From Halanaerobacter jeridensis (GTDB lineage: Bacteria; Bacillota; Halanaerobiia; Halobacteroidales; Halobacteroidaceae): a stretch of DNA of 64,000 nucleotides. Positions 12,761 through 64,000 of this stretch are shown in pieces. Under the pieces are notes generated by a model, which was not told where the DNA came from, did not search any database, and worked only from the letters and a program-made list of their open reading frames with translations. The stretch lies in the NCBI RefSeq assembly GCF_016908315.1, contig NZ_JAFBDQ010000005.1, positions 1 to 64,000 on the forward strand, in the 5' to 3' direction. The stretch's first letter is position 1. Each line of letters opens with the position of its first letter. Both the position numbers and the translations under genes were made by a program.

Positions 12761-13801
12761 TTAGTTGATTAAATTATCTAACGGACTTTCTATGTTTGCA
12801 ATATCTCTTTTGCTGACATGAGTATATATTTCAGTAGTAGTAGAACTCTTATGTCCTAATAATTTTTGGATGTATCGTAAATCAGTTCCTTGCTCTAATA
12901 AATGTGTTGCAAAAGAATGTCTTAAAGTATGTACAGAAACATCTTTAGTAATATTAGCTTTTCTACAGGCTTTTTTGAATATTCTTTGTACTGATCTTGT
13001 AGTTAAGTGTTCTCCTTCTTTGCCTCCAGGAAACAACCTCTTTTCGGGTTGATATAATTGATGATACATTTTTATCTGTTTCAGACAAGATTCTGATAAG
13101 ATCGTATAGCGATCTTTTCTCCCCTTCCCTTGATTAATTTTAATTAGCATTCTATCACTATTAATATCATCCATTTTTAGTTTAACAACTTCACTAACCC
13201 TTAATCCAGCAGAATAAACTACATACAAAATTGTTTTATGTTTGGGGTTATCTAGACTATCTAAAATCTTCGCTACTTCTTTTTTACTTAATACTTCCGG
13301 TAACTTTTTTTCTTTTTGTGGTCGTGATAAAACAACTGAAATATCTTTATTATCCAATACTTCCCGGGCCAAGAACTTAATAGCACTAATCCCCTGGTTA
13401 ACAAATGAATGTGATAAATCTTGGTCTAATAAATCCAACAAATAATCCTTAATCTCAGCATCAGTCACTCGTGATAACTTCTTATTAATAAATCGTGCAA
13501 ACTGCCTAATATGACTCATATAAACTTTTTCCGTCTTTTCACTATAACCTTCTAAATTTAACTGATTTTTTAGTTCATTAATTACTAGTTCATTTTCTAA
13601 AGCACTGGAAATTATAATTCTTTCATTAACAAATTTCTCTTTTAACTGTTCTAAAATATCATAATCATAAGGTACTAACCATGCTCTAGCTTTAGGGGCC
13701 CATTCCCGCTTATTAATTTCTTTAATTTTTTTAATTTTTCTTTCCGAATAATCAAATTTAACAGCTAGTTGTCCTTCTAACTTTTCAATTCTTAATGTCA
13801 T
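12761..13801 (-). CDS. tyrosine recombinase (Xer/integrase family, 346 aa) with a ~70-aa N-terminal extension; candidate cassette integrase
   Basis: Catalytic motifs are present: AGLRVSEV, HTLRHSFATHLL and LLGHKSSTTTEIYTHV. Only about 55 aa separate GKGRKDRYTIL from HTLRHSF, so the ~100-aa spacing I recall for IntI1 and VchIntIA is absent. The N-terminus is MTLRIEKLEGQLAVKFDYSERKIKKIKEINKREWAPKARAWLVPYDY... Confidence 0.85.
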   Translation of the reverse strand: MTLRIEKLEGQLAVKFDYSERKIKKIKEINKREWAPKARAWLVPYDYDILEQLKEKFVNERIIISSALENELVINELKNQLNLEGYSEKTEKVYMSHIRQFARFINKKLSRVTDAEIKDYLLDLLDQDLSHSFVNQGISAIKFLAREVLDNKDISVVLSRPQKEKKLPEVLSKKEVAKILDSLDNPKHKTILYVVYSAGLRVSEVVKLKMDDINSDRMLIKINQGKGRKDRYTILSESCLKQIKMYHQLYQPEKRLFPGGKEGEHLTTRSVQRIFKKACRKANITKDVSVHTLRHSFATHLLEQGTDLRYIQKLLGHKSSTTTEIYTHVSKRDIANIESPLDNLIN

Positions 13802-14036
13802 AAATTAGCTCCTCTCTCGCACGCATAAAATTAAATCTAACAAAAAATAGATTTTATAACATTATAACCAAATTTAAGAGCTAATATACATTAAAATATA
13901 TTTGCAACTAGCTTTTCTTATTATATTATTGATTATATACATTTATAGCATATTCTAGTTATACTTTTATTTTTCTCCACTAAAAAATATTTTCCTGCAC
14001 ATTCATCGTTAAAATCAATTTATTCTACTTATTTTT

Positions 14037-14073
14037 ACAAAAAAATAAAAGCTATCAAAATAATTTTGATAGC
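14037..14073 (-). terminator. intrinsic terminator after the MCP remnant
   Basis: Stem GCTATCAAAA (14051-14060) with TTTTGATAGC (14064-14073). On the minus strand it is followed by a T-run (A-run at 14037-14050 on plus). Confidence 0.6.
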
Positions 14074-14154
14074 AAATTAAAGTTTATATTCTTTTTTATC
14101 TATAAACTAGGGCCAACAACAAATAAGTTACTCAATCAAAATTAATATTTATTA

Positions 14155-14820: not shown

Positions 14821-14991
14821 AATTAAAATCTAAGTAGTAGGGCCAAACATAGCTAATATAGTATCTGTAATTATATAATATTCAACTAATAATTAGTGGA
14901 ATTAAGGTAATTGAGTTTAAAAATAGATATTGTTTTGTTACTAAGGATACTTGATAAGTTTTTAATTTATTCCCTTTAACTACTAAAAATA

Positions 14992-15780: not shown

Positions 15781-15811
15781 TGATCACCTTTATTCAATTA
15801 ATTTTACTACC

Positions 15812-16716: not shown

Positions 16717-16951
16717 TTATTCTTTGTTCTGGGCCAACAACTTACGAAATCCTCTTTCATCAAAATACGTTACTGCTTCAAAATTAGCCGGATGATTATA
16801 GGCACCTTCCTCAAAATATTCTGTCCTTCCCCTCTTGCTCCACTAAATATTGATTAACTGACCTTGATACAGTAGTCTTTCCTGCACTAGGCAGCCCTTC
16901 TACTAAAATTAAATTTTCTTCCCCTAACACTTCACCTCTCAGTTTTATCAC
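16717..16951 (-). pseudogene. remnant of a P-loop kinase/ATPase-like gene (frameshifted, truncated)
   Basis: The minus-strand translation gives VIKLRGEVLGEENLILVEGLPSAGKTTVSRSVNQYLVEQEGKDRIF, then a stop. It continues in another frame as EYFEEGAYNHPANFEAVTYFDERGFRKLLAQNKE. It is not in the ORF track. Confidence 0.4.
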
Positions 16952-17260: not shown

Positions 17261-17898
17261 TTTCTAATAGACCGCTTAGCAAAATCGAACATAGCTGTTA
17301 TGATCTCTTCTACTTCTCGCTGATGATATCCTTCTAAATAAGCTTTCTTTTTAGCCACCAAACTATTAACTCCCATAATATTGGCCCACAGAATTAATGC
17401 TGTATCAGTAACATCTATATCTTCTCTAATACTTCCATCTGCTATTCCTTCTTTTACCGCAGTAGTTAAAAACTCAAAAGCCTGTTCTCCCTTTTGATAA
17501 TACTCCTGCATCAACTGATCATCACTACTAAAATCTTCTTTTTGGGTTTCATAATTAGCGATTGCCTTAAAGTAATCGGGATATTCTTGATACAACTCTA
17601 AAAAACTACGGCCAATTGTCTCAATCTTGACCCAACCATTTTGTTCAGACATAGCTTCTAAATTCTGTTCTATCAACTTAATAAATTGTTCAAAAGCCCG
17701 AATAATCACTGCTAAATACAACTGCTGTTTACTATTGAAATAAACATAAATAGTTCGTTTACTAAATTATGCTTCTTGGGCTACTTCACTCATGGTAGTA
17801 TCTTCATAACCGTAGGCAAAAAATAATTTTTCTGCCGCATCAACAATCTCTGTTCTATTTATTTCTTTTGCTTTTTCTTTTCTTGATTCAACGCCCAT
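17257..17898 (-). pseudogene. TetR-family regulator with an in-frame TAA
   Basis: The reading frame is continuous from the ATG at 17896-17898 (MGVESRKEKAKEINRTEIVDAAEKLFFAYGYEDTTMSEVAQEA) to the stop at 17257. It is broken only by the TAA at 17767-17769, inside the HTH (..EVAQEA*FSKRTIYVYFNSK..). Confidence 0.75.
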
Positions 17899-18034: not shown

Positions 18035-21000
18035 TTAATTTTTTAAACTACTACCAATCAACTTTAAATTTTCTCCAATGTTATTTAATTCATTGACCAC
18101 TTGGATTACTTTTTGCCCGTCTTGATTGGACTTTTTCTTACGGTAGATTTCTTTTATTTCCTGCCATCTTTCTTCTTTCTCTGCTGTCATCCGTCCAGTA
18201 ATTTCATGAAACTTTAACAAACTAGCTTCAGCATGAGTTGCTAAGGTCTGAGCATCATTAATATAACTATTAACTATCAACTTATCCAATTCATCTTCAT
18301 TCATAATCGGGACTACTTTTTCTACAATTTTATTCATATTCCGGTAAGACCCCTGCAGTTTAAATGGTGGTTCTGTTCTATAATCATCATTTTGCGAAGC
18401 AGATTTGATATATTCCATATTAACTCTTAGCACTTCATCTCTAATCTGGAGACAACTTTCTAATACCTTTTGGGCTTCTTCTAACTCTTCTTCAGTATAA
18501 CTACCCTGCAAATTCATTTCTTCTTGCGTCTTAGTTGTAATATCCTCTAATAGTTGATAGATATCTGTTTGATTTTTCATATAAATATTATTTAAATATT
18601 GATTAGACGTGATAGCATTTTCAATATAACTAAGTTTAAAAGCCGATTCATTTTCTCTTAACATATCACCTAAATTATAGACATCAGCCCGATTGGCTAA
18701 CATATCAGGAATCTTAAATTTATCTCCACTTTCAGTATAAGGGTTACCGCCCATTACTACAGCTACCTTTTTACCTCTAAATTGATAAGTTTTACTTTGG
18801 CCTTGATAGACACCATCTATCTTTCTCTGACCGTCGCATAAAGAGATAAACTTCTGTAAAAACTCAGGGTTAGAATGCTGGATATCATCTAAATAAATCA
18901 TCACATTATTACCAATCTCCAGGGCCAAATTCAACTTCGCGAGTTCCTCCCTCGCACTAGCATTTTCAGCTTCCGCCGGATCAAGTGAGGTTACCCCATG
19001 CCCAATTGTCGGACAATTGACTTTAACCAGCATCATACTTAAGCGGTTAGCCACATATTCCACCAAAGTCGTCTTCCCATAACCCGGCGGAGAAATCATC
19101 AACAGCATTCCCATGTTATCAGTCCGCTTATCTTTACCAGCCGTTCCAATCTGTTTAGCTAGATTATCACCAATTAACGGCAGATAAACTTTATCGATTA
19201 ATTTATTGCGGACAAAAGAAGTCAGCACACTCGGCTTTAAATCCTCAAAATTAAACCTACTTTTAAGTTCCGCAATTTTAGCAAACTTTAACTGCTGAAA
19301 CTCCTGATACTGGGGCACAATATTGTTTTTAAAATTATCTAACTTAGCTAAAAAATCCGTTAAGCTAATTTGATACTGCCCATTATCAAGCTGAGGATGA
19401 GTACCTACTAAATTATCAATCTCAATTTGCGATTCTTCATTAATTATACGCCGCTGCTCATAATCATCAACCATTAAAATAGATAATACTTCATCAACAT
19501 AATGATTAAAACTCACTTCTTCTTCATGTAAATAAGACTGCAGCCATTCACTAATTAAAATATACTTTCCTTCCAAATCATCTGCTAATTTTTCCACTGA
19601 ACTATCAAAATCACTTTTAGCACTCTTAGCAATTAGAAAATCAGCAAACTGCTGGTGGATTTCTGCTGCTTCTTTACTAATTGCAAAAGCCTCATTTTGA
19701 CTTATTTCTTTGGCTAAATATTCTGCTGTTTTGTGATACTGACTACATTTAATCCATTCATTATCTGCTGTAAATGATTTGATTTCAGCCGCTAAGATAG
19801 GGATAAAACTAGCCACTAACTCCCGCTGCGAATACTTAGCTATGACATTAACTGTTTTTAATCTCCGCTGCAACTTTTCTTTTTTCTCTGATGCTAAACC
19901 AAACTCCCAAAACAAGTTTGCTACTGCTCTAACTTGAGGACTGTAAGCTGCTAATTCTAATTCACGGTATTTCTCTACTACTGCCTTTAGTATTTTTCGT
20001 CCATCATGATCGTGAACTCCAGTGGTATAATATTCATTAGAATGCTGCTGCATATAATCTTTAATGATTTTAGTTAAAGCCTGCTCATCTTTTTGATAGA
20101 GGTTATCTAATTGATTTTGCTCCTCATATTTTTTAAAGATATTATAGGCTAAAAACTCAGCTCGGTAAACTTCTTTATTTTCAGAAATTACTTCCTGCTC
20201 CCACACCTGCTCGTAAGCACTAAATTCTTCTTGTTCAATCGCTTCCCAAAAGTCAGTACCGGAAATGTGAAAATAAAAGCCGTCATCTTTACGCATTAAA
20301 CTTAACTCAGCTTCTTGATTATTAACTAAGAAATGATGATTGCCGAGCTTAATTGTATTCTCATCTAAAAATAATTCCTGCTTATCTTTTAACTGCTTGA
20401 TACTAGTTTCCCTTAACGATTTAAGTTTGTTTTCAATATCATCTGCTTTGGTGCTCGCTCCAAGGTCAATTAATTCTGCAATAATATCTCTTATCTTATC
20501 AACCATTGGACTAGTAGATAGTAGTTCATTAATCTCTGCTACTTCATCACAAGAATGAACCCGATTCTTTAAACTTTTAAAAATTCTATCCGCCGCATTA
20601 CCTAAAGAATCAATTTTTCGATTCTTCTGTTCCATTAGCTGCTGCTTTTTAGCTTCAAAAGTAGATACTATCTCTTCTCTTTTTTCAGTCAGTAGCACTA
20701 TAAACTCATCAAATTCAGAAAATTTACTCTCTAACTCATCAATTTGGATAATAATTTTAGACATATATGATTCAGTTTTCTCAACAGTAGTTGATAGTTC
20801 TAAATAATTAGCTACAGAATGAGTTAAAAGATTTAACTTAGAATAAAACTCAGCTTCTTTCTCCTGCGCACTTAAATTATCTATTTTGTTTTTGAGCTGT
20901 GACTTGTGCTGATTTAAATTAGAGAATAACGCCGAAATTTTATCAATAATCACTGAAGTTTTAGTCGCATCTTTGATCTTTAGATTATTAACTATATTAA

Positions 21001-22909
21001 TTAACATTTCTAATTCTTCAGAGACTTTTTTTATCTTTTTATTTAATTCTTCACCATCTACTACTTTCTCAATCTCCGGTAATTTATCCTTAATTTCTTG
21101 TACTTCTTCTTGATAGGGTTTTAAACTATTCTCCTGCAGCAGGAAGTTAATACAATCTTGGGCCAAGGTCTCCTGCTTTTCCTTAATCTCTTCCGCTAAT
21201 TCCTCCACCTGCTCTTCTTCCATAAACTGCAGGTCCTTTAGCCCCGCTATTTCGCCTCTCACCTGTCTAATTTGCGTTAGATATTTGACAAAGTCATTAA
21301 TATTCTCAAAACTAGCATAGCTAATTGCTTTTGTAATCTTAGTTACTTTTTCCTTAACTTGCTGATACTGCTGCTCGGTGTTTTCCTTGATTTTGCTGAC
21401 CTTATCAAACTCTTTAATCGCAATTGCTCCTGCTTCTTTAATCTTTAGGAGAGACTCTTTAATCTTAAAAGCTTCCGGTTTATCAAGCCAGAAATAGTTA
21501 TTAATAATATTTTCGGCATCATTAACTATATCTACATACAAACCATAGTAACTGTCATCTTTTTTAGATAAATTATACAGCGAATAACAATCTGCCATGA
21601 CCCTAACTATCTGCTTATTGCCGATATTATATAGAAATTCATCACTTTTCTCTGCAGCATCAGTGCCTACTTCTTTACCAAAAGGCGTTTCCCAAATTTG
21701 GATCGTATGGTTCCGTTTCGCCTCTTGAGCGGCAGTAAAAATTATCATCTCTCCATTATCAAAATGAGTGTAGCCATTACACATAATCGGCGTCTCAATA
21801 TCTTGATGAATAATATTATAATTATGAATTGAATATTCACCAGTTACGCGGTCATAAAAAATATACTGATAGTCTTCTCCATTGAGCGAAGCCTTTTTAT
21901 TTTGAAAAACCATATTGGCATAATTTAACTGAAAACGCTTGAATTCTCCTGACTGCAGAAAAATACCGTCAGGAAAGATCAAGCCTTGGTCTTCTGGTAA
22001 TAAAACCACTGATTTACCAATCGAGTCTATGCGCTCTACTTCTTCTGTCTTTTCATTAAAGACAATATAACGATAATTCTCTTCTTGATAAGGTTTAATC
22101 TTTAGTAAAATAAAGTTACCTACTACAGCGTAAAAGATAGTTGCATCATCAAGCTTTTGGTCTTTCCGTTCTACTTCATCAGAATAAATTCCCTTCCCTG
22201 AATTTGTATTATTCTCTATTTTTAGGGTTACATCGCCATTAATAGTTTCTACAAACAAACGATCGTCAATTGAAATATGGGGATAAAGACCAGCCACCTG
22301 GTCTTCTCTTGTCGTTTCAATCCATTCAATCTCCTGTTGAGGTGGATAAGAGATCTCATGACTAAATCTATTTCCTAAGTATTCTATAGTTTGATTATCT
22401 TTAACTAACCACTTGAAACTTTTAATATCATCTACATTATCCCCGGTTTGAAAGACCATATACAGAAAACCGTTCTTTTCATAAAACTTAGCAAAAAAAC
22501 TTTCTTTATAGTATTGATACAACTCTTTAAAGTCTGCTTTAAAACTCTCATCATCCAGCAGCGTATAATCCGATTTAACAAATCTAGTCCCATTATACTG
22601 ATAAAGAGAAAAGACATCGCTTAATTTAGTTTCAGATTTTAGGCCTAAGTGCACATTATAACCTAAAATAACCTGCTCCCCAACCGAAACTATATCACGC
22701 GGTATACAACTATTTTCTGTTACAATTGCTTCACTATTCTTTAATTTATTCTTTGTTTCTCCATAGATTTCTATTCGCTTTTCTTCTAATTTAGTTAATT
22801 TTTCTTGCAATTCTTCCGCTCGTTCTACTAACCGGTTTCTAATCACATTATAAGAAGCAAAACTATCCTGTTTTTCTTCTGTTGTAGATTCTTTAGCCAC
22901 TTTAACCAC
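18035..22909 (-). CDS. giant AAA+ ATPase-domain protein (1624 aa)
   Basis: The C-terminal third contains Walker A LLMISPPGYGKTTLVEY and Walker B NVMIYLDDIQH. A long central coiled-coil and an N-terminal beta-rich region are also present. The start lies 1 nt after the stop of the flotillin-like gene. Confidence 0.75.
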   Translation of the reverse strand: MVKVAKESTTEEKQDSFASYNVIRNRLVERAEELQEKLTKLEEKRIEIYGETKNKLKNSEAIVTENSCIPRDIVSVGEQVILGYNVHLGLKSETKLSDVFSLYQYNGTRFVKSDYTLLDDESFKADFKELYQYYKESFFAKFYEKNGFLYMVFQTGDNVDDIKSFKWLVKDNQTIEYLGNRFSHEISYPPQQEIEWIETTREDQVAGLYPHISIDDRLFVETINGDVTLKIENNTNSGKGIYSDEVERKDQKLDDATIFYAVVGNFILLKIKPYQEENYRYIVFNEKTEEVERIDSIGKSVVLLPEDQGLIFPDGIFLQSGEFKRFQLNYANMVFQNKKASLNGEDYQYIFYDRVTGEYSIHNYNIIHQDIETPIMCNGYTHFDNGEMIIFTAAQEAKRNHTIQIWETPFGKEVGTDAAEKSDEFLYNIGNKQIVRVMADCYSLYNLSKKDDSYYGLYVDIVNDAENIINNYFWLDKPEAFKIKESLLKIKEAGAIAIKEFDKVSKIKENTEQQYQQVKEKVTKITKAISYASFENINDFVKYLTQIRQVRGEIAGLKDLQFMEEEQVEELAEEIKEKQETLAQDCINFLLQENSLKPYQEEVQEIKDKLPEIEKVVDGEELNKKIKKVSEELEMLINIVNNLKIKDATKTSVIIDKISALFSNLNQHKSQLKNKIDNLSAQEKEAEFYSKLNLLTHSVANYLELSTTVEKTESYMSKIIIQIDELESKFSEFDEFIVLLTEKREEIVSTFEAKKQQLMEQKNRKIDSLGNAADRIFKSLKNRVHSCDEVAEINELLSTSPMVDKIRDIIAELIDLGASTKADDIENKLKSLRETSIKQLKDKQELFLDENTIKLGNHHFLVNNQEAELSLMRKDDGFYFHISGTDFWEAIEQEEFSAYEQVWEQEVISENKEVYRAEFLAYNIFKKYEEQNQLDNLYQKDEQALTKIIKDYMQQHSNEYYTTGVHDHDGRKILKAVVEKYRELELAAYSPQVRAVANLFWEFGLASEKKEKLQRRLKTVNVIAKYSQRELVASFIPILAAEIKSFTADNEWIKCSQYHKTAEYLAKEISQNEAFAISKEAAEIHQQFADFLIAKSAKSDFDSSVEKLADDLEGKYILISEWLQSYLHEEEVSFNHYVDEVLSILMVDDYEQRRIINEESQIEIDNLVGTHPQLDNGQYQISLTDFLAKLDNFKNNIVPQYQEFQQLKFAKIAELKSRFNFEDLKPSVLTSFVRNKLIDKVYLPLIGDNLAKQIGTAGKDKRTDNMGMLLMISPPGYGKTTLVEYVANRLSMMLVKVNCPTIGHGVTSLDPAEAENASAREELAKLNLALEIGNNVMIYLDDIQHSNPEFLQKFISLCDGQRKIDGVYQGQSKTYQFRGKKVAVVMGGNPYTESGDKFKIPDMLANRADVYNLGDMLRENESAFKLSYIENAITSNQYLNNIYMKNQTDIYQLLEDITTKTQEEMNLQGSYTEEELEEAQKVLESCLQIRDEVLRVNMEYIKSASQNDDYRTEPPFKLQGSYRNMNKIVEKVVPIMNEDELDKLIVNSYINDAQTLATHAEASLLKFHEITGRMTAEKEERWQEIKEIYRKKKSNQDGQKVIQVVNELNNIGENLKLIGSSLKN

Positions 22910-22910
22910 C

Positions 22911-24950
22911 TTACTCCATTATCTTTTTAATTGGAGTATTAGCTAGCCCTAGCTCTTTAGCTTTACTTAACACATGATTTAATACAGTTTTCTTAGTACC
23001 AGTGGCGTCATTCATATAATTCATAATTGCACTAGAAATAGTTAAGTTCTTAATTGCTTCTGAATCTAAATTAAAACTATCAATTAAAGATTTAACCTCT
23101 TGTTTAAACTCGTCTCTATCTCCACTGAAAAATGTATCTTTAACATCAGTTAAGACATCAGAATTATCAACTAATCTATCTACCTGTTTTCCTCTCGTAA
23201 TCGAATTAATTAAGTTATCAAAGAACATAGACTCGCCACCGACAATATCCACATTAGCATTCTGTAAGCCGTCTTTCAGGATTTCAGCCTGCGCTTGGGC
23301 AATTTGAGGTTGGATATTGATTTCGGCTAACTCTATTTCTTTATCTTTATTTAATCTCAACTTGAATTCTTCGTGTTCTTTACCAACAGAGTCTAATCGT
23401 TTCATTGCTTCCGCTTTCTTATTAATCCCCTCTGCCTCTGCTACAGCTTTGCCTTTAACTACCTCTGCTTCAGATTCTCCTGTTAACTTGATTGCTTTAG
23501 CTTCTGCTTCAGCCTGCATTTCTTTCACTTTAGCTTGAGTAGCACCTTCTTTTTCAGACGCTTCAGCTTTAGCCTTCATCACTCGAGCATCAGAAATACC
23601 TTCTACAGCAGATTCTTCGGCATTAGCATCAGCCATAATCTTAATCGATTCTGCCTTTTTGCGCGAAGTCTTTAATTCAGTATCAGCCTTAATAACCTCT
23701 TTTTCAGCTAATTCCGATTCACTTTGCTTCTCTGCTTCCGCTAATTTAATCTTTTGCAGTGCCTCTACTTCTGCATCACCTTCTGCAGTAGTAATATTCA
23801 CATCTTTAGCCCGCTTAGCTGCTGCTAATTCTTTAGTATCTTTGATCTTTTCTTCTTCCTCAGCTACCGACTTTTCCACCATCACTCGTTCGCGAATTAC
23901 TTCCTGCATATCTTTCTTTTCTTTCTCTAAGTTCTTATCTTTTTCTATTTGGGCCAAAGAAACTACCTTTTCTCGTTCCGTCTTTTCAATTTCTTGTTCC
24001 TTAGTCACCCGCTCTTCTTCCACAGCTTCAGTCGCCTCTTTAGACTTTTTGGCAACAATTATCTGACGATCCTTATTCTCTTCTGCAATTGCGATTTCTT
24101 CATCAGTTTTAATTCTCGCATTTTCAGACTTTAATCTCTCTTCTTCTTCCACAGTCTTGATTTGCGCACTTTCTCTAGACTTCATATTAGCAATTTCTCG
24201 CTTCTGTTTTTCCTCTGCTTCAGCCTGCTGGCGTTCTAATTCTAAAACTGCCTCTTTAGCACTGACATCCTGTTTGACAATTGTTTTTTCTTTGTTGCGC
24301 TGAATTTCATTTGCTTCCATAGCCTGCGTAGCAGTTAATTCTGTAATCTTTTTAATTCCTTCTGAATCAAGGACATTATTTTCATCTAAGTAATCCAATT
24401 TTGTCTGTTCTAAGTAATCAATCGCTGCATCATCTAAGACATAACCATTTAAATCAGTGCCAATCACCTGTAAAATTTCTTCTTTAAAGGTATCTCGTTC
24501 TGTATATAATTGAGTAAAATCAAACTTCTTTCCTACAGTTTTTAGAGCTTCAGAAAACTTAGCATCAAAAAATCTCATTAACGTATCCGTATCAGAAGCT
24601 TTTTTAGTCCCTAAAGACTTTGCTACCCGCAGCACATCTTCTTCAGTATGGTTAACCCGCACGAAAAAAGCTACTTTAATATCAGCTCGTAAATTATCTT
24701 TACAGACCAACCCATCTTTGCCGTCACGATGAATCTCTACTCTTTTTACTGAAACATCCATTGTCTCCCAGCGGTGCAGGATAGGAACCATCCAAGTTCC
24801 AGTGAAAGAAACTTTCGCTCCCCCAATTCCATTTCTGACAATTGCTGTTCCCTGACCTACTTTCTTGTAAAATAAGAGTAATAATAAAGGAAATCCAATA
24901 AAAACAAGAAATAAAATACCTCCTACTACATACAACACCATCTCTAACAT
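22911..24950 (-). CDS. flotillin-like SPFH/Band-7 protein (679 aa)
   Basis: N-terminal TM helix, then an SPFH-like core (GTAIVRNGIGGAKVSFTGTWMVPILHRWETMDVSVKRVEI...), then a long E/K/A-rich coiled-coil as in YqiK/FloT-type flotillins. Confidence 0.8.
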   Translation of the reverse strand: MLEMVLYVVGGILFLVFIGFPLLLLLFYKKVGQGTAIVRNGIGGAKVSFTGTWMVPILHRWETMDVSVKRVEIHRDGKDGLVCKDNLRADIKVAFFVRVNHTEEDVLRVAKSLGTKKASDTDTLMRFFDAKFSEALKTVGKKFDFTQLYTERDTFKEEILQVIGTDLNGYVLDDAAIDYLEQTKLDYLDENNVLDSEGIKKITELTATQAMEANEIQRNKEKTIVKQDVSAKEAVLELERQQAEAEEKQKREIANMKSRESAQIKTVEEEERLKSENARIKTDEEIAIAEENKDRQIIVAKKSKEATEAVEEERVTKEQEIEKTEREKVVSLAQIEKDKNLEKEKKDMQEVIRERVMVEKSVAEEEEKIKDTKELAAAKRAKDVNITTAEGDAEVEALQKIKLAEAEKQSESELAEKEVIKADTELKTSRKKAESIKIMADANAEESAVEGISDARVMKAKAEASEKEGATQAKVKEMQAEAEAKAIKLTGESEAEVVKGKAVAEAEGINKKAEAMKRLDSVGKEHEEFKLRLNKDKEIELAEINIQPQIAQAQAEILKDGLQNANVDIVGGESMFFDNLINSITRGKQVDRLVDNSDVLTDVKDTFFSGDRDEFKQEVKSLIDSFNLDSEAIKNLTISSAIMNYMNDATGTKKTVLNHVLSKAKELGLANTPIKKIME

Positions 24951-26400: not shown

Positions 26401-27192
26401 ACTATTATTACCTTCGTATTTATTCAAACTAGCTGCCATTTTTCTCAAATTGACAATACTTAAATCTAATTCACTATCAGCATGTTGGGAAATTGTTTTT
26501 AACTTTGCTAATTTTATTTTCATATTATCTAAGTCTGTAATTGCTTGTTCATTAATTGAAAGATATTTATTAATTGCCTGCAATTCAGTTAAAATCATCT
26601 CTTTTTTCTCTTTTAATGAGTTAAGTTCATCTCCCATCTCTGCAGTTAACTCATCTTTAGTTTCTAGTAACTCAATTCTTGAATTAATATAATTAAGGTT
26701 AATATCCTCTATCGATTGATAAATATCTTTAACTTGGGCCAAATTATCTAAAATATTATAGTATACTTCTTCTGTGACCCTCATGAATTTTTGATAAGTA
26801 ATTCCGTTTTTATCTAATTTGATATCTAAAATATTCTTAAACTTTTCAAACTTTTCAATCACTCTTAATAATTGATTTAAAGCCAAACGAGCACTTTCCT
26901 GATAATGATTAGTATTTGTCAAATCACTAAATTGAGTCTTTAATTCAGCAATAAAGGAAATTATCTCCTGCTTATAAGAAACATTACCTGTTCGCATTTT
27001 ACTCTCATCTATATCTACTTTTAATTTTTCTTCTTTTTTATATCCATTGCTTAACGACAAATTTAGCACCTCCACTAATAAGGCACCTGCTAAAATCCCC
27101 CATCCAAACTGCTGCAGAGAGTCAACAAACAAAATGATTTCTACGCTCACTACAATTGGAACCAACTTTTGAATAAGCAATTTTTTAATCAA
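26395..27192 (-). CDS. membrane protein with a C-terminal coiled-coil (265 aa)
   Basis: Two N-terminal hydrophobic helices, then a helical region. The architecture reminds me of XpaC/TelA-associated proteins, but I cannot verify this. Confidence 0.45.
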   Translation of the reverse strand: MIKKLLIQKLVPIVVSVEIILFVDSLQQFGWGILAGALLVEVLNLSLSNGYKKEEKLKVDIDESKMRTGNVSYKQEIISFIAELKTQFSDLTNTNHYQESARLALNQLLRVIEKFEKFKNILDIKLDKNGITYQKFMRVTEEVYYNILDNLAQVKDIYQSIEDINLNYINSRIELLETKDELTAEMGDELNSLKEKKEMILTELQAINKYLSINEQAITDLDNMKIKLAKLKTISQHADSELDLSIVNLRKMAASLNKYEGNNSN

Positions 27193-46181: not shown

Positions 46182-46197
46182 AATTTGACCTCATTCC

Positions 46198-46602: not shown

Positions 46603-46756
46603 TTAAATCATACTTTTCTTTGATACTTCTACGCATTAAATCTAAATAGCTTAGTGTAGTCTCTTCTTCAACTGAATAAATACTAGCTAAATTTTCTAAT
46701 TCCCGATCAAAAGGAATTGCAATATTAATTTTAGTATTATCTTTACTTGAAGACAT
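46595..46756 (-). CDS. small ORF inside the IS left end, possible ribbon-helix-helix protein (53 aa)
   Basis: MSSSKDNTKINIAIPFDRELENLASIYSVEEETTLSYLDLMRRSIKEKYDLNE. It overlaps the tnpA start by 8 nt. A beta-strand-like INIAIPFD is followed by helical segments. It is below the ORF-track size cut-off. Confidence 0.35.
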   Translation of the reverse strand: MSSSKDNTKINIAIPFDRELENLASIYSVEEETTLSYLDLMRRSIKEKYDLNE

Positions 46757-46854
46757 TTTATTTGCTCCTTTAACACATATTATCCCACAATAGATTATAT
46801 ATTATGTGAATAGTTGTGTTCTTGACCCAAGGGCAAGCCCGTTGGGTTTTTTAC

Positions 46855-48502: not shown

Positions 48503-49894
48503 TCAAAACGTAACCTTTTCTTCTATCTCTCCTTCAACATTAAGCACATGAGTAGCACAGGAAATACAAGGATCAAAAGAGCGAATAATCCGTCCTAAAA
48601 TCGTAGTTAATAAATTAGCATTAGGAATTTTAGTTCCGACTAAAGCATTTTCTACTGGTTCCCGCCGGCCCAATTTATCTTTAGGAGAAAAATTCCAAAC
48701 GGTAGGCGTTATAATTTGATAACTTGATACTTCTTCTCCTTCAATTTCTGCCTGATGCAATAGCGCTCCCCGCATCGCATCAGTAGTAGCTGTGACCTTA
48801 GTCTTAACTGGCTTTTCACTTTGACTAATTGGAGGTGGACCAGGTTCTAATTGAGCCAACCATTTCTCCATTAATTCTGCAATCTGCAGTGTTTCTCGTG
48901 AGCGGGCTACAATACGATCCATAGTTGAAGTCTTTAACGGATAGTCACCTCTGATAATTGCCCGCGCTAAAGGACCAGTTTCAAAAAAATCTCCGTCATA
49001 CTACACAGATTTAGTCCAACTATAAGCTCCTGGTTTATCTGGAGCCGGCTCTAACTGACCATCTTCTTCTTCAAACCAAGAATTAGCTACTGTTTCTTCA
49101 ATTTTATCCACATCAGGCTGGGCAAACTGCCGCCCGTTAATTACTCCCCTAGGCCAAAAATCATCTTGATTCTGTTCACCAAACTTAAATAAGCCACAAG
49201 AAATTAACCGCTTAGGAGTAACCCCAATCTTAAAATAATCATTATAAACTTGGGCCAACAATTCTGTATCTGGAATCAGTTTTTCTCTAATAAATTGCAA
49301 AATATTAGCTAATAATGCTTGAGCTCGATTAATCTTATCAGCAGTAGGAGCTACTGCTACACCACCTTGCACAAAACTATGTTGATGCGGTGCTTTCCCG
49401 CCAAATAAAGCTAATATCTCATGCGCTTCCTGCGCAACCTTGACAGCATCAAAGTAATGACCTACTAAGCGCTGATTATCTTTAGGCTTCAAACGCCCAT
49501 CAACAAGATTTTGATTTTGCCACGGAGGCCGATTAGGAAACTCAACAAAATCAGGCAAGCTAAAAAAATAAAAATGGCGGATATGATTTTGTAAGAAATC
49601 AGCAACCAGCATAATATTTCTTAAATACTGAGCCCGCTGAGATAAAGTACTACCATATAACTCATCTAATAAATAACTACCCACTGCTCCATGGGCCAAA
49701 GAACAAATCCCACATACCCGCTGCGTCAGATATACAGCATCAGTTACTTTCCGGCCCTGCATAATTTTTTCATAACCTCTAAACATCGTACCTTTAGCAT
49801 TAGCCTCTTTGATCCAACCATCATCTATAACTACCTTGACTGATAGTAATCCACTTAATCGCGTAACAGGACTAAAATTAATCGTCTGACTCAT
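48503..49894 (-). pseudogene. [NiFe]-hydrogenase large subunit with a single in-frame TAG
   Basis: N-terminal RVCGICSLAHG and C-terminal DPCISCATH. The two ORF-track fragments are joined in frame by ..YSWTKSV-TAG-YDGDFFETGPLARAIIRG.. (TAG at 49001-49003). Total length is 464 codons. Confidence 0.8.
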
Positions 49895-49978: not shown

Positions 49979-50899
49979 TTATTCATTACTGTTTTCAGAT
50001 AGCGGAGTAAAAAATGGCGTCGAACCATCGGGAAAATCGGGATTAGTACAGCCGATACAAGGAGTATTAGCTTCGACTGGCCAATTAACATTAATCCACT
50101 TCCGATAAGGGCAATCTGCTCTAGTTTTAGGCCCTACACATCCTTGACTGAACATACATTCAATCTCACCTAAATTTTCAGCAAAGTTACCATTATCAAA
50201 ATAAGAGCGACGCTGACAATGGCGGTGAATAGTATAACCATAAAATAAAGTTGGTCGATTGCGGTTATCAAGTTCTGGCCGTCCATACATTAATAAATGC
50301 GCTAAAGTTCCAACAAACCAATCAGCATTCACCGGGCAACCACTGACATTAATAACTTCCCGGTCTAATACCTCACTGACTGCTACACTTTGACTGAGAT
50401 TAGGTCGAGCTGCACTAGGGCCACCGAAACTAGCACAAGTTCCTAGTGCTACTACATATTTAGCCAAGCCACCTAACCACTTTACTGCTTCTAAAGCACT
50501 AACTTCTCCTTGGGAAGTAATGAAGACAACATTGTACTCTTCTTGTAAAGGAATTGCTCCTTCTACTACTAAAGTAAATTGACCGGCTTTTTTATTAGCA
50601 GCAGCTTTGAGATTATTAACCGCATCTTGGCCCTGGGCAGCCATAAAAGTATTACTGTATAACAAATCAATTGTTTCCTCCAAAAATCGGTCTAAATAGG
50701 GATATGTTGTATTCATGATTGAAATATTATTATCACAACTACAATTTGTTTCTAACCAAATTACAGGTAATTTTTCAGTTTGAGAATCATGATAACTACT
50801 TACTTCTGCTAAGATTTTATGAGTTAAAGAACTATGCCCTTTATTACCTTGGTAAGGAGAATAATTCTGACAAAGATTGATAAACTCATTTCGCTTCAC
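49979..50899 (-). CDS. [NiFe]-hydrogenase small subunit (306 aa, no obvious Tat signal)
   Basis: Cysteine pattern for the proximal, medial and distal FeS clusters (..NCSCDNNIS.., GTCASFGG, ..CPYRKW..CIGCTNPDFPD). It lies directly upstream of the large subunit. Confidence 0.8.
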   Translation of the reverse strand: MKRNEFINLCQNYSPYQGNKGHSSLTHKILAEVSSYHDSQTEKLPVIWLETNCSCDNNISIMNTTYPYLDRFLEETIDLLYSNTFMAAQGQDAVNNLKAAANKKAGQFTLVVEGAIPLQEEYNVVFITSQGEVSALEAVKWLGGLAKYVVALGTCASFGGPSAARPNLSQSVAVSEVLDREVINVSGCPVNADWFVGTLAHLLMYGRPELDNRNRPTLFYGYTIHRHCQRRSYFDNGNFAENLGEIECMFSQGCVGPKTRADCPYRKWINVNWPVEANTPCIGCTNPDFPDGSTPFFTPLSENSNE

Positions 50900-59779: not shown

Positions 59780-62485
59780 TTAAGTGCTGCTTTGTCTAAT
59801 CTTCAGTACCTGAATTATTACATTCGGAATAATAAATCCTAGTGAAATAGCCGGCCACATTCCTAACGGAATAGCCGTAGTCTTTAAAACTGTCTGTAAA
59901 AACGGATTATAAATAGCTAGTATCTGTAATAGAAAACTAACTACAATCGACAAGATCAAATATGGATTTTCTAATACTGACTTGTCATATCCAGTTCCCT
60001 TTTGCCGTCGAACATTAAAGGCATGCAGCAACTGGGTAAAGGAGAACACAGCAAAACTAATGGTGCGACTTAACTCCACACTATATCCGCTGTTTAAGAC
60101 TATTAAATAAGTAACCAAGGCTCCAGCAGCAATCAAACTACTGTGCAGCAAAATTTCTTTCTTAAAATCATCATGTAAAATCGGCTTATCAGGGTCACGC
60201 GGTGACCTGCTCATGACATTAGGTTCTGCTACTTCCCATCCTAAAGATAAAGCTGGGAAGACATCAATTACTAGGTTTAACCATAAAATCTGTAACGCTA
60301 ACATTGGAACAGGCACTTGTAGTACTATACCTAAGAAAATAAGAATAATTTTACTTAAGTTACTTGAAAAGAGATAGTACATAAACTTCTTAATATTATC
60401 AAAAATAATTCGCCCTTGCTTAATAGCACTAACAATTGTACTAAAGCTGTCATCAAGCAGGACTATATCTGCCGTATTCTTAGCTACAGAAGTACCGCGT
60501 TGGCCCATAGCTACTCCAATATCAGCTTTTTTCAAAGCTGGAGCATCATTAACGCCGTCACCAGTCATAGCCGTAATCTCATTATTTTGATTTAAAGCAT
60601 CAATAATTTCTAATTTATTTTCCGGCGACACTCTCGTAAATACCGAATGAGTCTTAATTGCACTACTACGCTCTGCTGTCGTCATAGCATCAAATTCTTG
60701 CCCTGATAAATCAGAGTTGCTATCTTTGCTAATCCCAACTTTTTCAGCAATAGAAACAGCAGTATCGCGTTGATCACCAGTAATCATTTTAGTTTCAATT
60801 CCTGCTGCTTGCGCTTCTTGAATTGCATTAGCTGCTTCTTGCCGCGGGGGATCCATAATACCAGCTAATCCTGCAAAAACCAAACTAGATTCAATTGCTT
60901 CCTCAATTTCAGCTTCAGTTTCCGCCCTCACATCGGCTCGATAAGCAACAGCTAAGACACGCAGGCCATTTTGGGCCAAGGCTTGATTGCGCTCGGTTAG
61001 CTCATCAATCCTCTGTTCGGTTAGTTCTTTCTTTCCGTCAGTAGTTAATTCCTGATCACACATTTCTAAAACTACATCCGGCGCACCTTTAACAAAAATA
61101 TAATCGCCGTCGGGAATCTCATAAGAGACAGCCATATATTTCAATTCCGAGCTAAAAGGAATCTCTTCTAAACGTTGATAATCATTATCTTCCATTTTTT
61201 CTTTATCATAACCAGCCTTGTGGGCAGCAGTTACTAATGCCCCTTCAGTTGGATCGCCTACTACTTTCCAAGCTCCTGTTTCATCTTGATTAATCGCAGC
61301 ATTGCTGCATAAAGCTCCTGACTGTAAAAAGAGATCTAAATTCTTTTTCTCAGTTGCAGTTAACTGACTACCGTCTGCATCTTCAAACTCACCCTGCGGC
61401 TCATAGCCCGTGCCCGTTACATTTATCTCAGCATCAGGCAGTATAATCTGGCGTAAAGTCATTTGATTTTCAGTAATTGTACCTGTTTTATCAGTACAAA
61501 TAGTAGTCGTTGAACCCAGTGTTTCTACTGCCGACAAACGCCTAACTAAGGCATTTTTATCTACCATTTTGTTCATGCCAATTGCTAAAGTGATAGTTGC
61601 TACAATTGGTAATCCCTCAGGCACAGAAGCAATTGCTAAGGCAATACCTGTTTTAATCATTTCTTTGATTGGCTGTCCGACCAAAATTCCAATCCCTGTC
61701 ACAATCACTGCCACTACCAAAGTGATTTTAACTAAGGCTTTACCCATTGTATCCAATCTTTCTTCGAGCGGAGTTTCTTCTTGTTCAGTCTCTTGCAGCA
61801 TGTCACTAATTTGGCCCATTTCAGTGTCAGTACCGGTTCCAGTTACCAGTACTTCCGCATTACCTCTGGTCACTGAAGTTCCCATATAGACCATATTCTC
61901 TCTTTCAGCTAAAGCTATCTCTTCATCAACCGTGAAATTATGGTCTTTCGCTACCGTCTCCGATTCTCCTGTTAAAAGTGATTCGTTAATCTGCAGTTTA
62001 TCCGCATCAAGCAGTCGACCATCAGCCGCAACCCGGTCCCCTTCTTCAATTACTAAGATATCACCAGGGACTACTTCAGTTGCTTCAATTTCAATCGTTT
62101 TTCCGCCGCGGATTACTTTTGCAGTTGGTGAAATCACCTCTTTTAAAGCGGCAAGAGATTTTTCAGCTTTATACTCAGTAATAAATCCAAAGGCTCCATT
62201 AAATATAATAACTGCTAACACAGCCGCCCCTTCTATTACATCACCAATCGCAAAAGCAGCAATTGCAGCAACTAACAAAATTAATACAATTATATCTTTA
62301 AACTGCTCTAATAGTACTTCCCAAATTGAGACTTCACTTTTTTCTTCTAACTTATTTGGCCCATATTCTTTTAATTTTTGTTGAGCTTCACTACTGCTCA
62401 GACCAGTTTCTGTATCAACTGCGAAGTTCTCTATTAATTGCTCTAAATCCTGTTGATAATAATCTTCAGTAGATTTAGATATAAT
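59780..62485 (-). CDS. P-type cation-transporting ATPase (Ca2+/type II-like, about 901 aa), apparent non-ATG start
   Basis: ICTDKTGTITENQM, MITGDQRDTA and TGDGVNDAPALKKADIGVAMG. The frame stays open upstream of the ORF-track start (..STEDYYQQDLEQLIENFAVDTETGLSSSEAQQKLKEYGPNKLEE..) back to ATT/ATA codons at 62485/62482, 4-7 nt after AAGGAGGG. There is no in-frame ATG, GTG or TTG there. Confidence 0.8.
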   Translation of the reverse strand: MISKSTEDYYQQDLEQLIENFAVDTETGLSSSEAQQKLKEYGPNKLEEKSEVSIWEVLLEQFKDIIVLILLVAAIAAFAIGDVIEGAAVLAVIIFNGAFGFITEYKAEKSLAALKEVISPTAKVIRGGKTIEIEATEVVPGDILVIEEGDRVAADGRLLDADKLQINESLLTGESETVAKDHNFTVDEEIALAERENMVYMGTSVTRGNAEVLVTGTGTDTEMGQISDMLQETEQEETPLEERLDTMGKALVKITLVVAVIVTGIGILVGQPIKEMIKTGIALAIASVPEGLPIVATITLAIGMNKMVDKNALVRRLSAVETLGSTTTICTDKTGTITENQMTLRQIILPDAEINVTGTGYEPQGEFEDADGSQLTATEKKNLDLFLQSGALCSNAAINQDETGAWKVVGDPTEGALVTAAHKAGYDKEKMEDNDYQRLEEIPFSSELKYMAVSYEIPDGDYIFVKGAPDVVLEMCDQELTTDGKKELTEQRIDELTERNQALAQNGLRVLAVAYRADVRAETEAEIEEAIESSLVFAGLAGIMDPPRQEAANAIQEAQAAGIETKMITGDQRDTAVSIAEKVGISKDSNSDLSGQEFDAMTTAERSSAIKTHSVFTRVSPENKLEIIDALNQNNEITAMTGDGVNDAPALKKADIGVAMGQRGTSVAKNTADIVLLDDSFSTIVSAIKQGRIIFDNIKKFMYYLFSSNLSKIILIFLGIVLQVPVPMLALQILWLNLVIDVFPALSLGWEVAEPNVMSRSPRDPDKPILHDDFKKEILLHSSLIAAGALVTYLIVLNSGYSVELSRTISFAVFSFTQLLHAFNVRRQKGTGYDKSVLENPYLILSIVVSFLLQILAIYNPFLQTVLKTTAIPLGMWPAISLGFIIPNVIIQVLKIRQSST

Positions 62486-62567
62486 TAATCCCTCCTTAGT
62501 AATTAGTAATTAAACATTATTAAGGAAATATATCTTTTTATTATTTTCTCTATCTGACAGAAATACT

Positions 62568-64000
62568 TTAATTCAAACTTTCTTCTATCCTTCGTTTGAG
62601 CTGCCTTTTGCACTGTTCAGCATTAAGGTAAAAACTAGCCCCCTGCAGGTTATAAATATCCCAGCCAACTCTAATTAACTGCCGCTGTTTTCTCTTATCC
62701 TCCCACCATTGTTCAGGCGAATAAAATTGATCACCAGCACACTCAATCGCCATTCGATTTTGTTCTCCTTTAACTACTAGGTCAAGCACATGATTGCCGA
62801 TTTGTTCCTTAACCGTTACATTGTATCCTTCAGCTTTTAACCACTGATAAACATCCTTTTCTAACTGTGTTTCACACTTAACGCTTCTGTTTTTCTGCTC
62901 TAAGTACTGATGATTTTTAATATAATCTAATAATTTATAGCGCATATCATCTTCATTATCTAATTCCTGCTCTAATTTAACCGAATGCACTAAAATCACT
63001 TGATCTCTAGCTCGACTAACTGCTACATTAAAACGCTGCCGGGCACTACTTCGCGTTAAAGCTCTAAAGCGCCGATTACTAGCAACCACCATTGATAATA
63101 GCATTACATCTCTTTCGTCTCCCTGGAATGTATAAGCATCACCAGCTAAAAATTTATGCTCTTCTTGCTCTTGGGGAGTTAGATAATCATCAATTTTAGC
63201 AGCAATATATTCCGCCTGCTTCTTTCCTTTAAGAGAGACAACCCCAAAAGTTTTATCCTGATACATTGGATCTTGGCTTAATTCCTTCACTTTCTCACAA
63301 ATAACTTCTGCTTCTCGTTTATTTACTTTACCCTTACTATCAATTTCTCCCTCTTTGAGGTAAATATTTTCTAAAGTTGGCTTTAATCTTTGCTCTTCGC
63401 GTACATTACGCAGCGGTAATATCTTTCCTTCATAGAAATTTTGATTGCTAAATTCAATAATTTCAGGCAGTGAGCGGAAATGTTCTTTTAACATTAAATT
63501 ATAGCGTCCGTCAAAGGTAGCTTTAGCAATATCATAAAGACTCGTCTTTAAATCCATCATATTTTTATTAGCTAAATCTTTTAAATGCTGTTCAATAAAG
63601 ACCTCAATCTTATCCCGAGAAATTCCTACTACGCTAGGGCTAATCTGTTTTTCATCTCCCACAACAATCACCTTTTTAGCCCGGGCCAAAGCCAATAATG
63701 CTGTGATATTCGACTGGCTAGCTTCATCAATGATTAGCACATCAAAAGAATTCATCTCCCGCGTAATCGTCTCCGACACACGATAAAGCGGCATAATCCA
63801 CGTGGGAACAGCATTTTTAGCCTTTTTCATATACTTTTGCGCTTCTTTACTCCATTTAGCAGCATTCTTCCCCGTACCTTTACCAATTCTATTAACTGCA
63901 TGTTTCCATTTCTTCAAGGCATTAATATCAGCCTGTGAAGTATTTTCTTTTAATTTCAATTTCACTTTAGCTAAAACTAATTTACGCTTTAAATTAGTTA
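62568..64000 (-). CDS. SF1 (Upf1/DNA2-like) helicase C-terminal half fused to a Vsr/DUF559-like endonuclease domain (5' end outside the window)
   Basis: VLIIDEASQSNI, VVGDEKQISP and RFNVAVSRARDQVILV helicase motifs. The C-terminal EKDVYQWLKAEGYNVTVKEQIGNHVLDLVVKGEQNRMAIECAGDQFY has a PD-(D/E)xK-like pattern. The frame is open to base 64000. Confidence 0.7.
   Translation of the reverse strand, partial: TNLKRKLVLAKVKLKLKENTSQADINALKKWKHAVNRIGKGTGKNAAKWSKEAQKYMKKAKNAVPTWIMPLYRVSETITREMNSFDVLIIDEASQSNITALLALARAKKVIVVGDEKQISPSVVGISRDKIEVFIEQHLKDLANKNMMDLKTSLYDIAKATFDGRYNLMLKEHFRSLPEIIEFSNQNFYEGKILPLRNVREEQRLKPTLENIYLKEGEIDSKGKVNKREAEVICEKVKELSQDPMYQDKTFGVVSLKGKKQAEYIAAKIDDYLTPQEQEEHKFLAGDAYTFQGDERDVMLLSMVVASNRRFRALTRSSARQRFNVAVSRARDQVILVHSVKLEQELDNEDDMRYKLLDYIKNHQYLEQKNRSVKCETQLEKDVYQWLKAEGYNVTVKEQIGNHVLDLVVKGEQNRMAIECAGDQFYSPEQWWEDKRKQRQLIRVGWDIYNLQGASFYLNAEQCKRQLKRRIEESLN

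Follow-up and report, generated by a model that had tools for sequence, protein, structure and literature searches.

The heptamer TTGGCCC is placed and kept at high density in resident DNA of Halanaerobacter jeridensis and its nearest relatives: a possible Chi-type signal

The known classes of DNA words that attain about a thousand exact copies per genome comprise Chi sites, the sequences orienting the translocases FtsK and SpoIIIE (FtsK-orienting polar sequences, KOPS, and SpoIIIE recognition sequences, SRS), the uptake sequences (DNA uptake sequence, DUS, and uptake signal sequence, USS) and the highly iterated palindrome HIP1. Few kinds of such hyper-abundant words (Chi, KOPS and USS/DUS) are understood, and HIP1 has remained unexplained for decades. 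Whether one more word belongs to any of these classes is the question raised by the first 64,000 nucleotides of contig NZ_JAFBDQ010000005.1 of Halanaerobacter jeridensis (the whole stretch analysed, hereafter the window), where the heptamer TTGGCCC (GGGCCAA on the complementary strand) recurs about once per 1.7 kb in all frames, on both strands, in genes and between them. A preliminary description of the window had noticed its abundance and offered a recombination hotspot, an uptake or segregation signal and a mutational or codon-pair artefact as explanations. The analysis given here leaves little doubt that the word is a real signal, acting at the level of DNA, specific for the lineage and maintained there. 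A force directed at the whole heptamer places it in resident DNA and keeps it there, overriding codon usage and sometimes the amino-acid sequence. As to its nature, we tentatively propose by analogy with known systems that TTGGCCC may be the Chi-type word of an AddAB/RecBCD-class enzyme, a reading that could well prove wrong.

Exact matches to the word were searched for on both strands of the whole window, yielding 30 copies, 20 of which read GGGCCAA and 10 TTGGCCC on the plus strand; all lie within 13,366–63,689, and positions 1–12,700 contain none. The 28 copies reported previously were all correctly positioned, but two had been overlooked (44810, GGGCCAA on plus, and 32331, TTGGCCC on plus). 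The accompanying zero-order estimate of 1–2 copies agrees with the computed value of 1.6, while the impression that well over half of all GGCC tetramers stand in this context was exaggerated, the actual share being 30 of 61, or about half. Dinucleotide shuffling of the whole window gave 3.6 copies on average and 9 at most, so none of 100 shuffles reached 30. For the segment 12.7–64 kb, Markov models predict 1.6, 3.2, 2.6 and 2.9 copies at orders 0, 1, 2 and 3, respectively, and the word is over-represented 10–19-fold; under the order-2 model it ranks first among heptamers of this segment, as TTGGCCCA/TGGGCCAA does among octamers. Expectations of 8.2 and 25.6 copies at orders 4 and 5 come near the observed count because the sub-words from which they are computed (TGGCCC, TTGGCC) derive almost wholly from the heptamer itself, making the fit circular. 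The boundaries of the word are sharp: its 21 one-mismatch neighbours sum to 55 copies against about 56 expected, which means that each of the seven positions counts and that the word has no degenerate version. The neighbours that deamination would produce (TTGGTCC, TTGGCTC and TTGGCCT) also occur at expectation, none being depleted. Comparison of the flanks of the 30 copies revealed neither a common sequence nor an extended consensus, and the word is thus not a repeat element; a dispersed repeat of the repetitive extragenic palindrome or miniature inverted-repeat transposable element type (REP/MITE) is ruled out by the lack of conserved sequence past the core. No eighth base is fixed either: A stands there in only 18 of the 30 copies, and outside the Leu-Ala frame in 7 of 15. 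Longer or palindromic versions were considered as well, and both TTGGNCCAA and the eighth-base extension fail outside the Leu-Ala-Gln/His frame, TTGGNCCAA showing no enrichment beyond that of TTGGCCC itself. Palindromes are rare (one copy of TGGCCA, two of GGGCCC), and GGCC outside the word occurs at about the expected frequency.

Coding constraints do not account for this abundance. Synonymous codons were shuffled 300 times among all 37 open reading frames (ORFs), with proteins and codon usage kept, and none of the shuffles reached the observed 17 sense-strand copies of TTGGCCC (1.0 expected) or the 8 of GGGCCAA (1.26 expected); in total, 25 genic copies stand against about 2.3, and TTGGCCC is the first-ranked sense-strand heptamer in this test. 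Among 97 sites where the peptide permits the word synonymously, 25 are filled (17 of 50 in sense and 8 of 47 in antisense orientation). That many copies are read in frame as Leu-Ala, and that this engages unusual codons, had been noticed beforehand, and both statements hold. The frame TTG GCC C accommodates 16 of 26 genic copies, the remainder falling into the five other classes; TTG GCC encodes 15 of 31 Leu-Ala-Cnn tripeptides, although TTG makes up 16% of Leu codons and GCC 10% of Ala codons, and C comes next in 15 of 16 TTG-GCC pairs. Relative to neutral expectation, the boost is about 47-fold in sense frame 0 and 5–12-fold in the other five frame classes. Intergenic DNA carries 4 copies in about 8.6 kb, a density near the genic one. 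Copies are uniformly positioned within genes (Kolmogorov–Smirnov P = 0.15) and their spacing is Poisson-like, with a coefficient of variation of gaps of 0.97, which rejects regular spacing as well as clustering. None of the four intergenic copies is in a hairpin, and the window has no inverted pairs, the closest two copies being 208 bp apart. The count proposed for comparison with Markov and codon-shuffled models is thus reproduced neither by orders 0–3 nor by codon shuffles, and since composition and codon-aware models both miss it, the force acts on DNA. A motif functioning at the RNA level was also considered, and enrichment in antisense and intergenic positions speaks against it; Rfam yields only a fluoride riboswitch (RF01734, 48.7 bits) at 53702–53770 on the minus strand, upstream of a Na+/H+-exchanger-family gene (52229–53416). 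The longest word-free stretch (50,634–58,843, 8.2 kb) includes three tandem LysM-domain paralogues of about 400 amino acids each (53836–57755), of which one relative (L012, below) has a single representative.

The phylogenetic range of the word was assessed in Logan fragments of H. jeridensis, in relatives represented in metagenomes and in outgroup loci. Copies were distributed among them as follows (MAG, metagenome-assembled genome):

L016, second, unlinked piece of the H. jeridensis genome: 5 copies in 6.6 kb, first-ranked heptamer there
L012, metagenome relative with HydA 93% identical: 6 copies in 7.0 kb
L019, metagenome relative of about 83% nucleotide identity: 16 copies in 21.6 kb
L013, metagenome relative with HydA 80% identical: 16 copies in 21 kb, first-ranked heptamer
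L014, metagenome relative with HydA 80% identical: 4 copies in 7.4 kb
L025, relative, topA locus (the sole clade locus returned by a metagenome scan with TopA): 5 copies in 5.5 kb
L024, MAG named "Halanaerobacter sp.": 3 copies in 11 kb
L015, Orenia metallireducens: 0 copies in 21 kb
L017, Selenihalanaerobacter shriftii: 0 copies in 13.7 kb
L003, Halanaerobiales MAG: 1 copy in 21 kb
L004, L006 and L009, Caloramator: about 0.05–0.09 per kb

Seven of eight clade loci have 0.54–0.91 copies per kb, and the MAG L024 has fewer, 0.27. Compared with outgroups of equal GC content, the clade holds 67 copies against one, and TTGGCCC is the first-ranked word in this comparison; it is thus a character derived in Halanaerobacter and the lineages closest to it. 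A literature search for either reading of the word returned nothing relevant, and no genomic word was found reported for Halanaerobacter. Other words differ between these loci too. Those with CpG (CCGC, CGGC, CCCG and CCGG) are 2–12 times commoner in the clade (window, L013, L016 and L019) than in L003, L015 and L017 of the same GC content, and CTGCGG counts 32 copies in the clade and one in the outgroups, concentrated in the window and L019 only; as secondary clade-enriched words, CTGCGG and CGGCAGT were discarded for their inconsistency between relatives.

The fate of individual sites was followed in a five-way table of orthologous positions, in which L013 and L014 served as outgroups polarising the gains. 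The sites of the window, on the strand where TTGGCCC is read, and two contrast regions are the following:

13366..13372, minus: intI (integron integrase), frame 0, FLARE
14110..14116, minus: intergenic, between intI and ORF 14155–14820
14840..14846, minus: intergenic
16731..16737, minus: intergenic, upstream of a metallo-beta-lactamase-fold gene
17381..17387, plus: antisense to ORF 17257–17721 (sense TGG GCC AAT, LWANI); Gly in L013, Ala in the window
18922..18928, minus: DUF3686 ATPase gene, frame 0, NLALE
21160..21166, minus: DUF3686 ATPase gene, frame 0, TLAQD
23951..23957, minus: flotillin-family gene, frame 0, SLAQI
26736..26742, minus: ORF 26395–27192, frame 0, NLAQV
29207..29213, plus: M14 peptidase gene (plus, lagging-strand gene), sense frame 0, QLAQK; gain in the window lineage (L019 TTAGCCC, L013 CTAGCTC)
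30769..30775, minus: ORF 30075–30884, frame 1, LIGPG
32331..32337, plus: antisense to DUF2974 gene (sense GGG CCA AGC, YGPSA); common to L019
32575..32581, plus: antisense to DUF2974 gene (sense GGC CAA, GMGQI)
36963..36969, minus: Mut7-C RNase gene, frame 0, KLARY; common to L019
41502..41508, minus: hypE, frame 1, VVGPD; common to L019 and L013
41929..41935, minus: hypE, frame 0, TLAHG; common to L019 and L013
42924..42930, plus: antisense to hypD (sense GGG CCA AAT, QGPNV); created by a Gln-to-Pro replacement in the window lineage
43283..43289, minus: hypC (43260–43493), frame 0, DLAQD
44810..44816, minus: hypF fragment, frame 0, SLAHG
47221..47227, minus: hypF N-terminal fragment, frame 0, TLAQI; gained in the ancestor of window and L019 (outgroups TTAGCTC, TTAGCCC)
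49252..49258, minus: NiFe hydrogenase large subunit, frame 0, LLAQV; outgroups TTA GCT, then a Lys or Arg codon
49693..49699, minus: NiFe hydrogenase large subunit, frame 0, SLAHG; kept in all aligned relatives (L019, L012, L013, L014)
50627..50633, plus: antisense to NiFe hydrogenase small subunit (sense GGC CAA, AQGQD); kept in L019, L012 and L013
58844..58850, minus: antisense to dprA (plus-strand gene; sense GGC CAA, YQGQL); common to L012
59052..59058, plus: dprA, sense frame 0, VLAHG; common to L012 and L013
60500..60506, plus: antisense to P-type ATPase gene, AMGQR
60973..60979, minus: P-type ATPase gene, frame 0, ALAQN
61811..61817, plus: antisense to P-type ATPase gene, EMGQI
62356..62362, plus: intergenic
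63683..63689, minus: SF1 helicase/MTES_1575 gene, frame 0, ALARA; common to L013
1..12712, unstranded: contrast region, integron cassette array; no copy of the word, single GGCC at 11098
44820..46850, minus: contrast region, IS200/IS605 element (tnpA, tnpB) in hypF; no copy of the word

Between the window and L019, 8 sites are shared, 3 are found in the window only and 7 in L019 only, the usual alternative state at orthologous positions being TTA GCT C, written with common codons. Polarised gains in the window and L019 lineages comprise A>G and T>C together with A>C, T>A and C>A changes; some of them required two to four substitutions inside the seven bases. Amino-acid replacements accompanied several gains, namely Lys/Arg>Gln at 49252, Gln>Pro at 42924, Gly>Ala at 17381 and, in L013, Arg>Lys and Asn>Arg. 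Where the window has lost the word, a C>T transition is responsible, leaving TTGGTCC at 53301 and TTGGCCT at 49151. Once made, the sites persist: of 11 window sites, 8 are retained in L019, to be set against 0.315 for all other heptamers and 0.26 for those with at least five G/C, and of 13 window sites, 6 are retained in L013 (controls 0.165 and 0.06, respectively), i.e., two to eight times the control heptamers (P from 0.006 to 6e-5). With the whole word favoured at every position and kept thereafter, both simple T:G-to-C:G short-patch repair and neutral replenishment balanced by neutral decay are ruled out; a footprint of Vsr-type very-short-patch repair or of deamination was separately discarded, being incompatible with gains of the A>C, T>A and C>A types and with undepleted neighbours. 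Selection on the DNA word, for which the preliminary description had argued, is therefore supported by codon shuffles, filled sites, amino-acid-changing gains and retention above controls, with the specification that the force may be selection or drive. The NiFe hydrogenase and hyp maturation operon (43493–50899) is decaying in H. jeridensis: the large-subunit gene has an in-frame TAG at 49001–49003, hypB is split into 47757–48080 and a downstream piece, and hypF is frameshifted and interrupted by the IS200/IS605 insertion sequence (IS; tnpA 46198–46602, tnpB 45048–46181), whose end hairpins with CGGGCTTGCCC lie near 46835 and 44835. The hydrogenase and hyp genes are intact in L013 and L019. 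This IS is probably multi-copy, as it appears in the Logan assembly as a collapsed 1.46-kb contig.

Recently acquired DNA is devoid of the word. The 12.7-kb cassette array contains no copy (P = 6e-4 at resident density), in accord with what had been noticed before and with the earlier reading of the cassettes as foreign DNA. Neither does the IS200/IS605 element in hypF, and L019 has none at 13–21.6 kb but 16 in the 13 kb of flanking DNA; part of this empty portion (about 13,000–19,650) is a block not present in the window, which encodes an ABC ATPase, two FtsX-type permeases and a TP_0789-like protein. Conversely, window segments 18–28 kb, 30–35 kb and 59.8–62.3 kb bear the word although they are lacking in L013 and L019, suggesting that they are old residents or derive from word-bearing relatives. 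A link of the word to the IS, as its target or transposon-associated motif, was considered on account of the 44810 copy, which stands in the hypF coding sequence about 10 nt past the right-end hairpin of the IS, and was rejected, there being no general association. The integron itself occupies 1–13801 and consists of a tyrosine-recombinase gene intI (12761–13801, minus strand) followed by the cassette array, the repeats of which have GACGTC and TCGCGA words in common; its cassettes encode a Gabija-like pair (OLD/TOPRIM ATPase at 6270–7997 and UvrD-type helicase at 4490–6280) and YaaC-family, Asp23-family and COMM-domain proteins.

The orientation of copies is also biased. Sense-strand GC skew at third codon positions is +0.39 in minus-strand genes and −0.20 in plus-strand ones, and intergenic GC skew on the plus strand amounts to −0.24; the excess of G over C, usual for leading strands, marks the minus strand as the leading one, on which 33 of 37 ORFs are encoded. 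Replication-associated skew is unusually strong throughout 12,700–64,000. Of the 30 copies, 20 (67%) have TTGGCCC on the leading strand, whereas the strand-specific order-2 expectation is opposite (0.97 for leading vs 1.54). That the strand skew follows the dominant gene orientation, as was stated earlier, is true of this 2:1 ratio, which besides exceeds the predictions of both order-2 composition (P = 0.002) and the codon model (P = 0.014). In relatives the ratios are 10:6, 10:6, 3:1, 3:3 and 3:0.

What might maintain such a word? In the scheme that we tentatively prefer, an AddAB/RecBCD-class helicase-nuclease would enter a broken DNA end and degrade DNA until it encounters 5′-TTGGCCC-3′ on the 3′-ended strand, the orientation recognised being the one that predominates on the leading strand; at the word the enzyme would switch to RecA loading and repair. 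Protection and repair would in this way fall to resident DNA, and degradation to foreign DNA poor in the word; selection favouring dense coverage would preserve existing sites and bring new ones to fixation. Poisson-like spacing together with uniform position in genes fits a coverage signal of this type and not a gene-level one. Known Chi words of Firmicutes span 5–7 nt, and Chi of E. coli is 4–8-fold over-represented and occurs once per 4.5 kb with 75% of copies on the leading strand, although skew is not universal among Chi (PMC5959072). Chi words of other Firmicutes were examined as competitors in this DNA: GAAGCGG of S. aureus has 2 copies and GCGCGTG of L. lactis none, while AGCGG, in spite of 61 copies and 69% skew, exceeds codon shuffles only 1.65-fold. 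No gene for an AddAB/RecBCD-class enzyme was seen in the approximately 70 kb of H. jeridensis DNA.

Several observations weigh against a Chi-type role. TTGGCCC is without the GCG or GTGG core, GCG being common to the Chi words of Firmicutes, and it is C-rich on a G-rich leading strand. Orenia (21 kb) and Selenihalanaerobacter (13.7 kb) have no comparably striking word, though end-processing enzymes are presumed there. To our knowledge, forcing of amino-acid changes is documented for uptake sequences and not for Chi, and L025 harbours an inverted pair of words at the tip of a terminator-like hairpin, an arrangement known from DUS. Evidence from orientation is likewise mixed: the second H. jeridensis locus, L016, has a ratio of 2:3, unique sites in the four lagging-strand genes are divided 2:2, and the excess comes mainly from the sense frame 0 TTG GCC C. 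Hence transcription or coding may have caused the skew, and the effects of replication and transcription are not separable in these data.

An alternative that we regard as unlikely, though not negligible, is a HIP1-like word tied to a methyltransferase or another DNA-binding system (nucleoid organisation or self-marking) and kept by selection or by biased repair or gene conversion in favour of the complete word. GGCC and GGNCC, both of which are held within the word, are common targets of 5-methylcytosine methylases, and clade specificity would fit an acquired methylase or binding protein. HIP1 of cyanobacteria is 15–300-fold over-represented and is conserved at orthologous sites beyond neutral expectation in and between ORFs, with no gene-level role (PMC5861425); TTGGCCC resembles it in enrichment, conservation above controls and uniform placement. 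On the other hand, the word is not palindromic, there is no enrichment of TGGCCA or GGGCCC (1 and 2 copies), GGCC has about its expected frequency elsewhere and the deamination neighbours are not depleted. Transversion gains at the outer A/T positions, moreover, could not arise by T:G-to-C:G short-patch repair, and no methylase gene was seen in the same 70 kb of H. jeridensis DNA.

With similarly low probability, the word would be no Chi but the signal of a system new to Firmicutes, for instance the first sequence-specific uptake signal outside Proteobacteria, with a 7-bp word and inverted pairs that now and then form terminators, or a new kind of self-marking word serving defence or repair; in the latter variant the system would have arisen in the Halanaerobacter lineage after its split from Orenia and Selenihalanaerobacter. 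Taken on its own, an uptake signal of the USS/DUS type is rather improbable. It would imply that a competence receptor prefers DNA with the word and that recombination among relatives spreads the sites as a drive, bringing no benefit per site. The sharp clade boundary with sister genera lacking the word, its absence from foreign DNA and a net gain in each lineage, amino-acid replacements included, speak for it, and dprA, the only transformation-related gene seen, is present in the window and carries two copies itself, though this gene is widespread in non-competent bacteria as well. The density of about 0.6 per kb is near that of DUS, which has about 1900 copies in 2.2–2.3 Mb (PMC3630211). In L025 (1605–1660), a perfect 19-bp hairpin, AAGCTAAACTAAGGGCCAA-CG-TTGGCCCTTAGTTTAGCTT, resembling a terminator, directly follows an ORF stop codon; its tip (1626–1641) is an inverted pair of the word, the sole such pair in about 131 kb of clade DNA, and it resembles the paired DUS of Neisseria. 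Yet the window is free of inverted pairs and its four intergenic copies stand outside hairpins, the word is only 7 nt long without extended flanking consensus while known uptake cores take 9–12 nt, enrichment is 10–19-fold and not above 100-fold, and orientation is biased 2:1. We also know of no sequence-specific DNA uptake reported in Firmicutes, Halanaerobiales included, which counts against this explanation. On balance, a Chi-like signal fits the data somewhat better than an uptake signal.

A role in segregation, with the word read by FtsK or SpoIIIE as a KOPS/SRS, appears very improbable. Short length, asymmetry, over-representation and leading-strand preference speak in its favour, but KOPS-type skew is about 85% or more and converges on dif, and the 67% of TTGGCCC is far below the 97% shown by GAAGAAG in the same DNA, by which a translocase-orienting role, if present, would be better filled. 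The heptamer GAAGAAG has 38 leading-strand (minus) copies and 1 lagging-strand copy in 12,700–64,000, as counted without control for Glu-Glu coding or purine skew, and the same polarity is seen in every relative as well as in Orenia and Selenihalanaerobacter as outgroups (L013, L015, L017 and L019). Since it is identical to the experimentally defined KOPS of L. lactis (PMC3384302), GAAGAAG is a candidate signal orienting FtsK/SpoIIIE. Another polar word, GCAGGAG(A), has 25 copies at 15375–59579 against about 4 expected, 19:6 in favour of the leading strand and none in the cassette array; as GCAGGAG is only 3.4-fold above synonymous-codon shuffles, codon-pair usage (GCA GGA) may explain much of its excess. 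Finally, an origin from composition or codon-pair preference, or from a family of dispersed repeats, can practically be dismissed: concentration of 16 of 26 genic copies in the Leu-Ala frame and the approach of Markov orders 4–5 to the observed count would suit it, but the latter is circular as its 5- and 6-mers stem from the word, codon shuffles give 2.3 copies against 25, antisense frames and intergenic DNA are enriched too, flanks are unconserved and no copies occur in the sister genera, whose GC content and codon usage are the same. From the interpretations offered at the outset, selection or drive on the word and the foreign origin of the cassettes thus stand, the mutational or codon-pair artefact is rejected by codon shuffles and polarised gains, and the segregation signal is unlikely in view of its weak skew.

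Irrespective of its function, TTGGCCC represents a clean case: an exact heptamer with a sharp phylogenetic boundary and measurable gain and retention, under pressure strong enough to impose rare codons and even amino-acid changes. It can be used in Halanaerobacter genomes and metagenome bins as a marker distinguishing resident from recently acquired DNA, flagging here integron cassettes, an IS element and an ABC-transporter island. Should it prove to be a Chi, it would be the first candidate known to us for Halanaerobiales and unlike any known Chi, and would bear on the evolution of AddAB recognition and on how Chi density steers end-processing defence in telling self from non-self.

Compared with known systems, TTGGCCC has partial counterparts in each. 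KOPS/SRS (E. coli GGGNAGGG, L. lactis GAAGAAG) are equally short, asymmetric and strand-preferring, but their skew is far above 67%. HIP1 (GCGATCGC), too, is found within genes and in the DNA between them, takes precedence over codon usage, exceeds controls in its conservation at orthologous positions and is confined to one lineage; it is, however, a palindrome with the targets of two orphan methylases and periodic spacing, whereas TTGGCCC is asymmetric and spaced in a Poisson-like manner within 51 kb. With DUS of Neisseriaceae and USS of Pasteurellaceae it has in common that an exact hyper-abundant word, about one per kb, extends over the whole clade and is absent next door, is scarce in foreign DNA and, in coding DNA, influences the choice of codons and of some residues; as with the Neisseria DUS, one inverted pair forms a terminator-like hairpin in the relative L025. 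It differs from them in being shorter, less enriched and biased in orientation, and pairs are not its usual arrangement. Chi is represented for comparison by AGCGG of B. subtilis, GCGCGTG of L. lactis and streptococci, GAAGCGG of S. aureus and GCTGGTGG of E. coli RecBCD. TTGGCCC departs from these in being made of rare codons instead of being carried by common ones. As Chi words are (5–8 nt), it is short, exact, asymmetric and GC-rich for its genome, several-fold to more than 10-fold over-represented and found every 2–5 kb or denser; like them, it is enriched in resident and not in mobile DNA and varies from lineage to lineage. The leading strand carries 75% of Chi copies in E. coli and 67% of those of TTGGCCC, an excess that in the latter may also stem from gene orientation.

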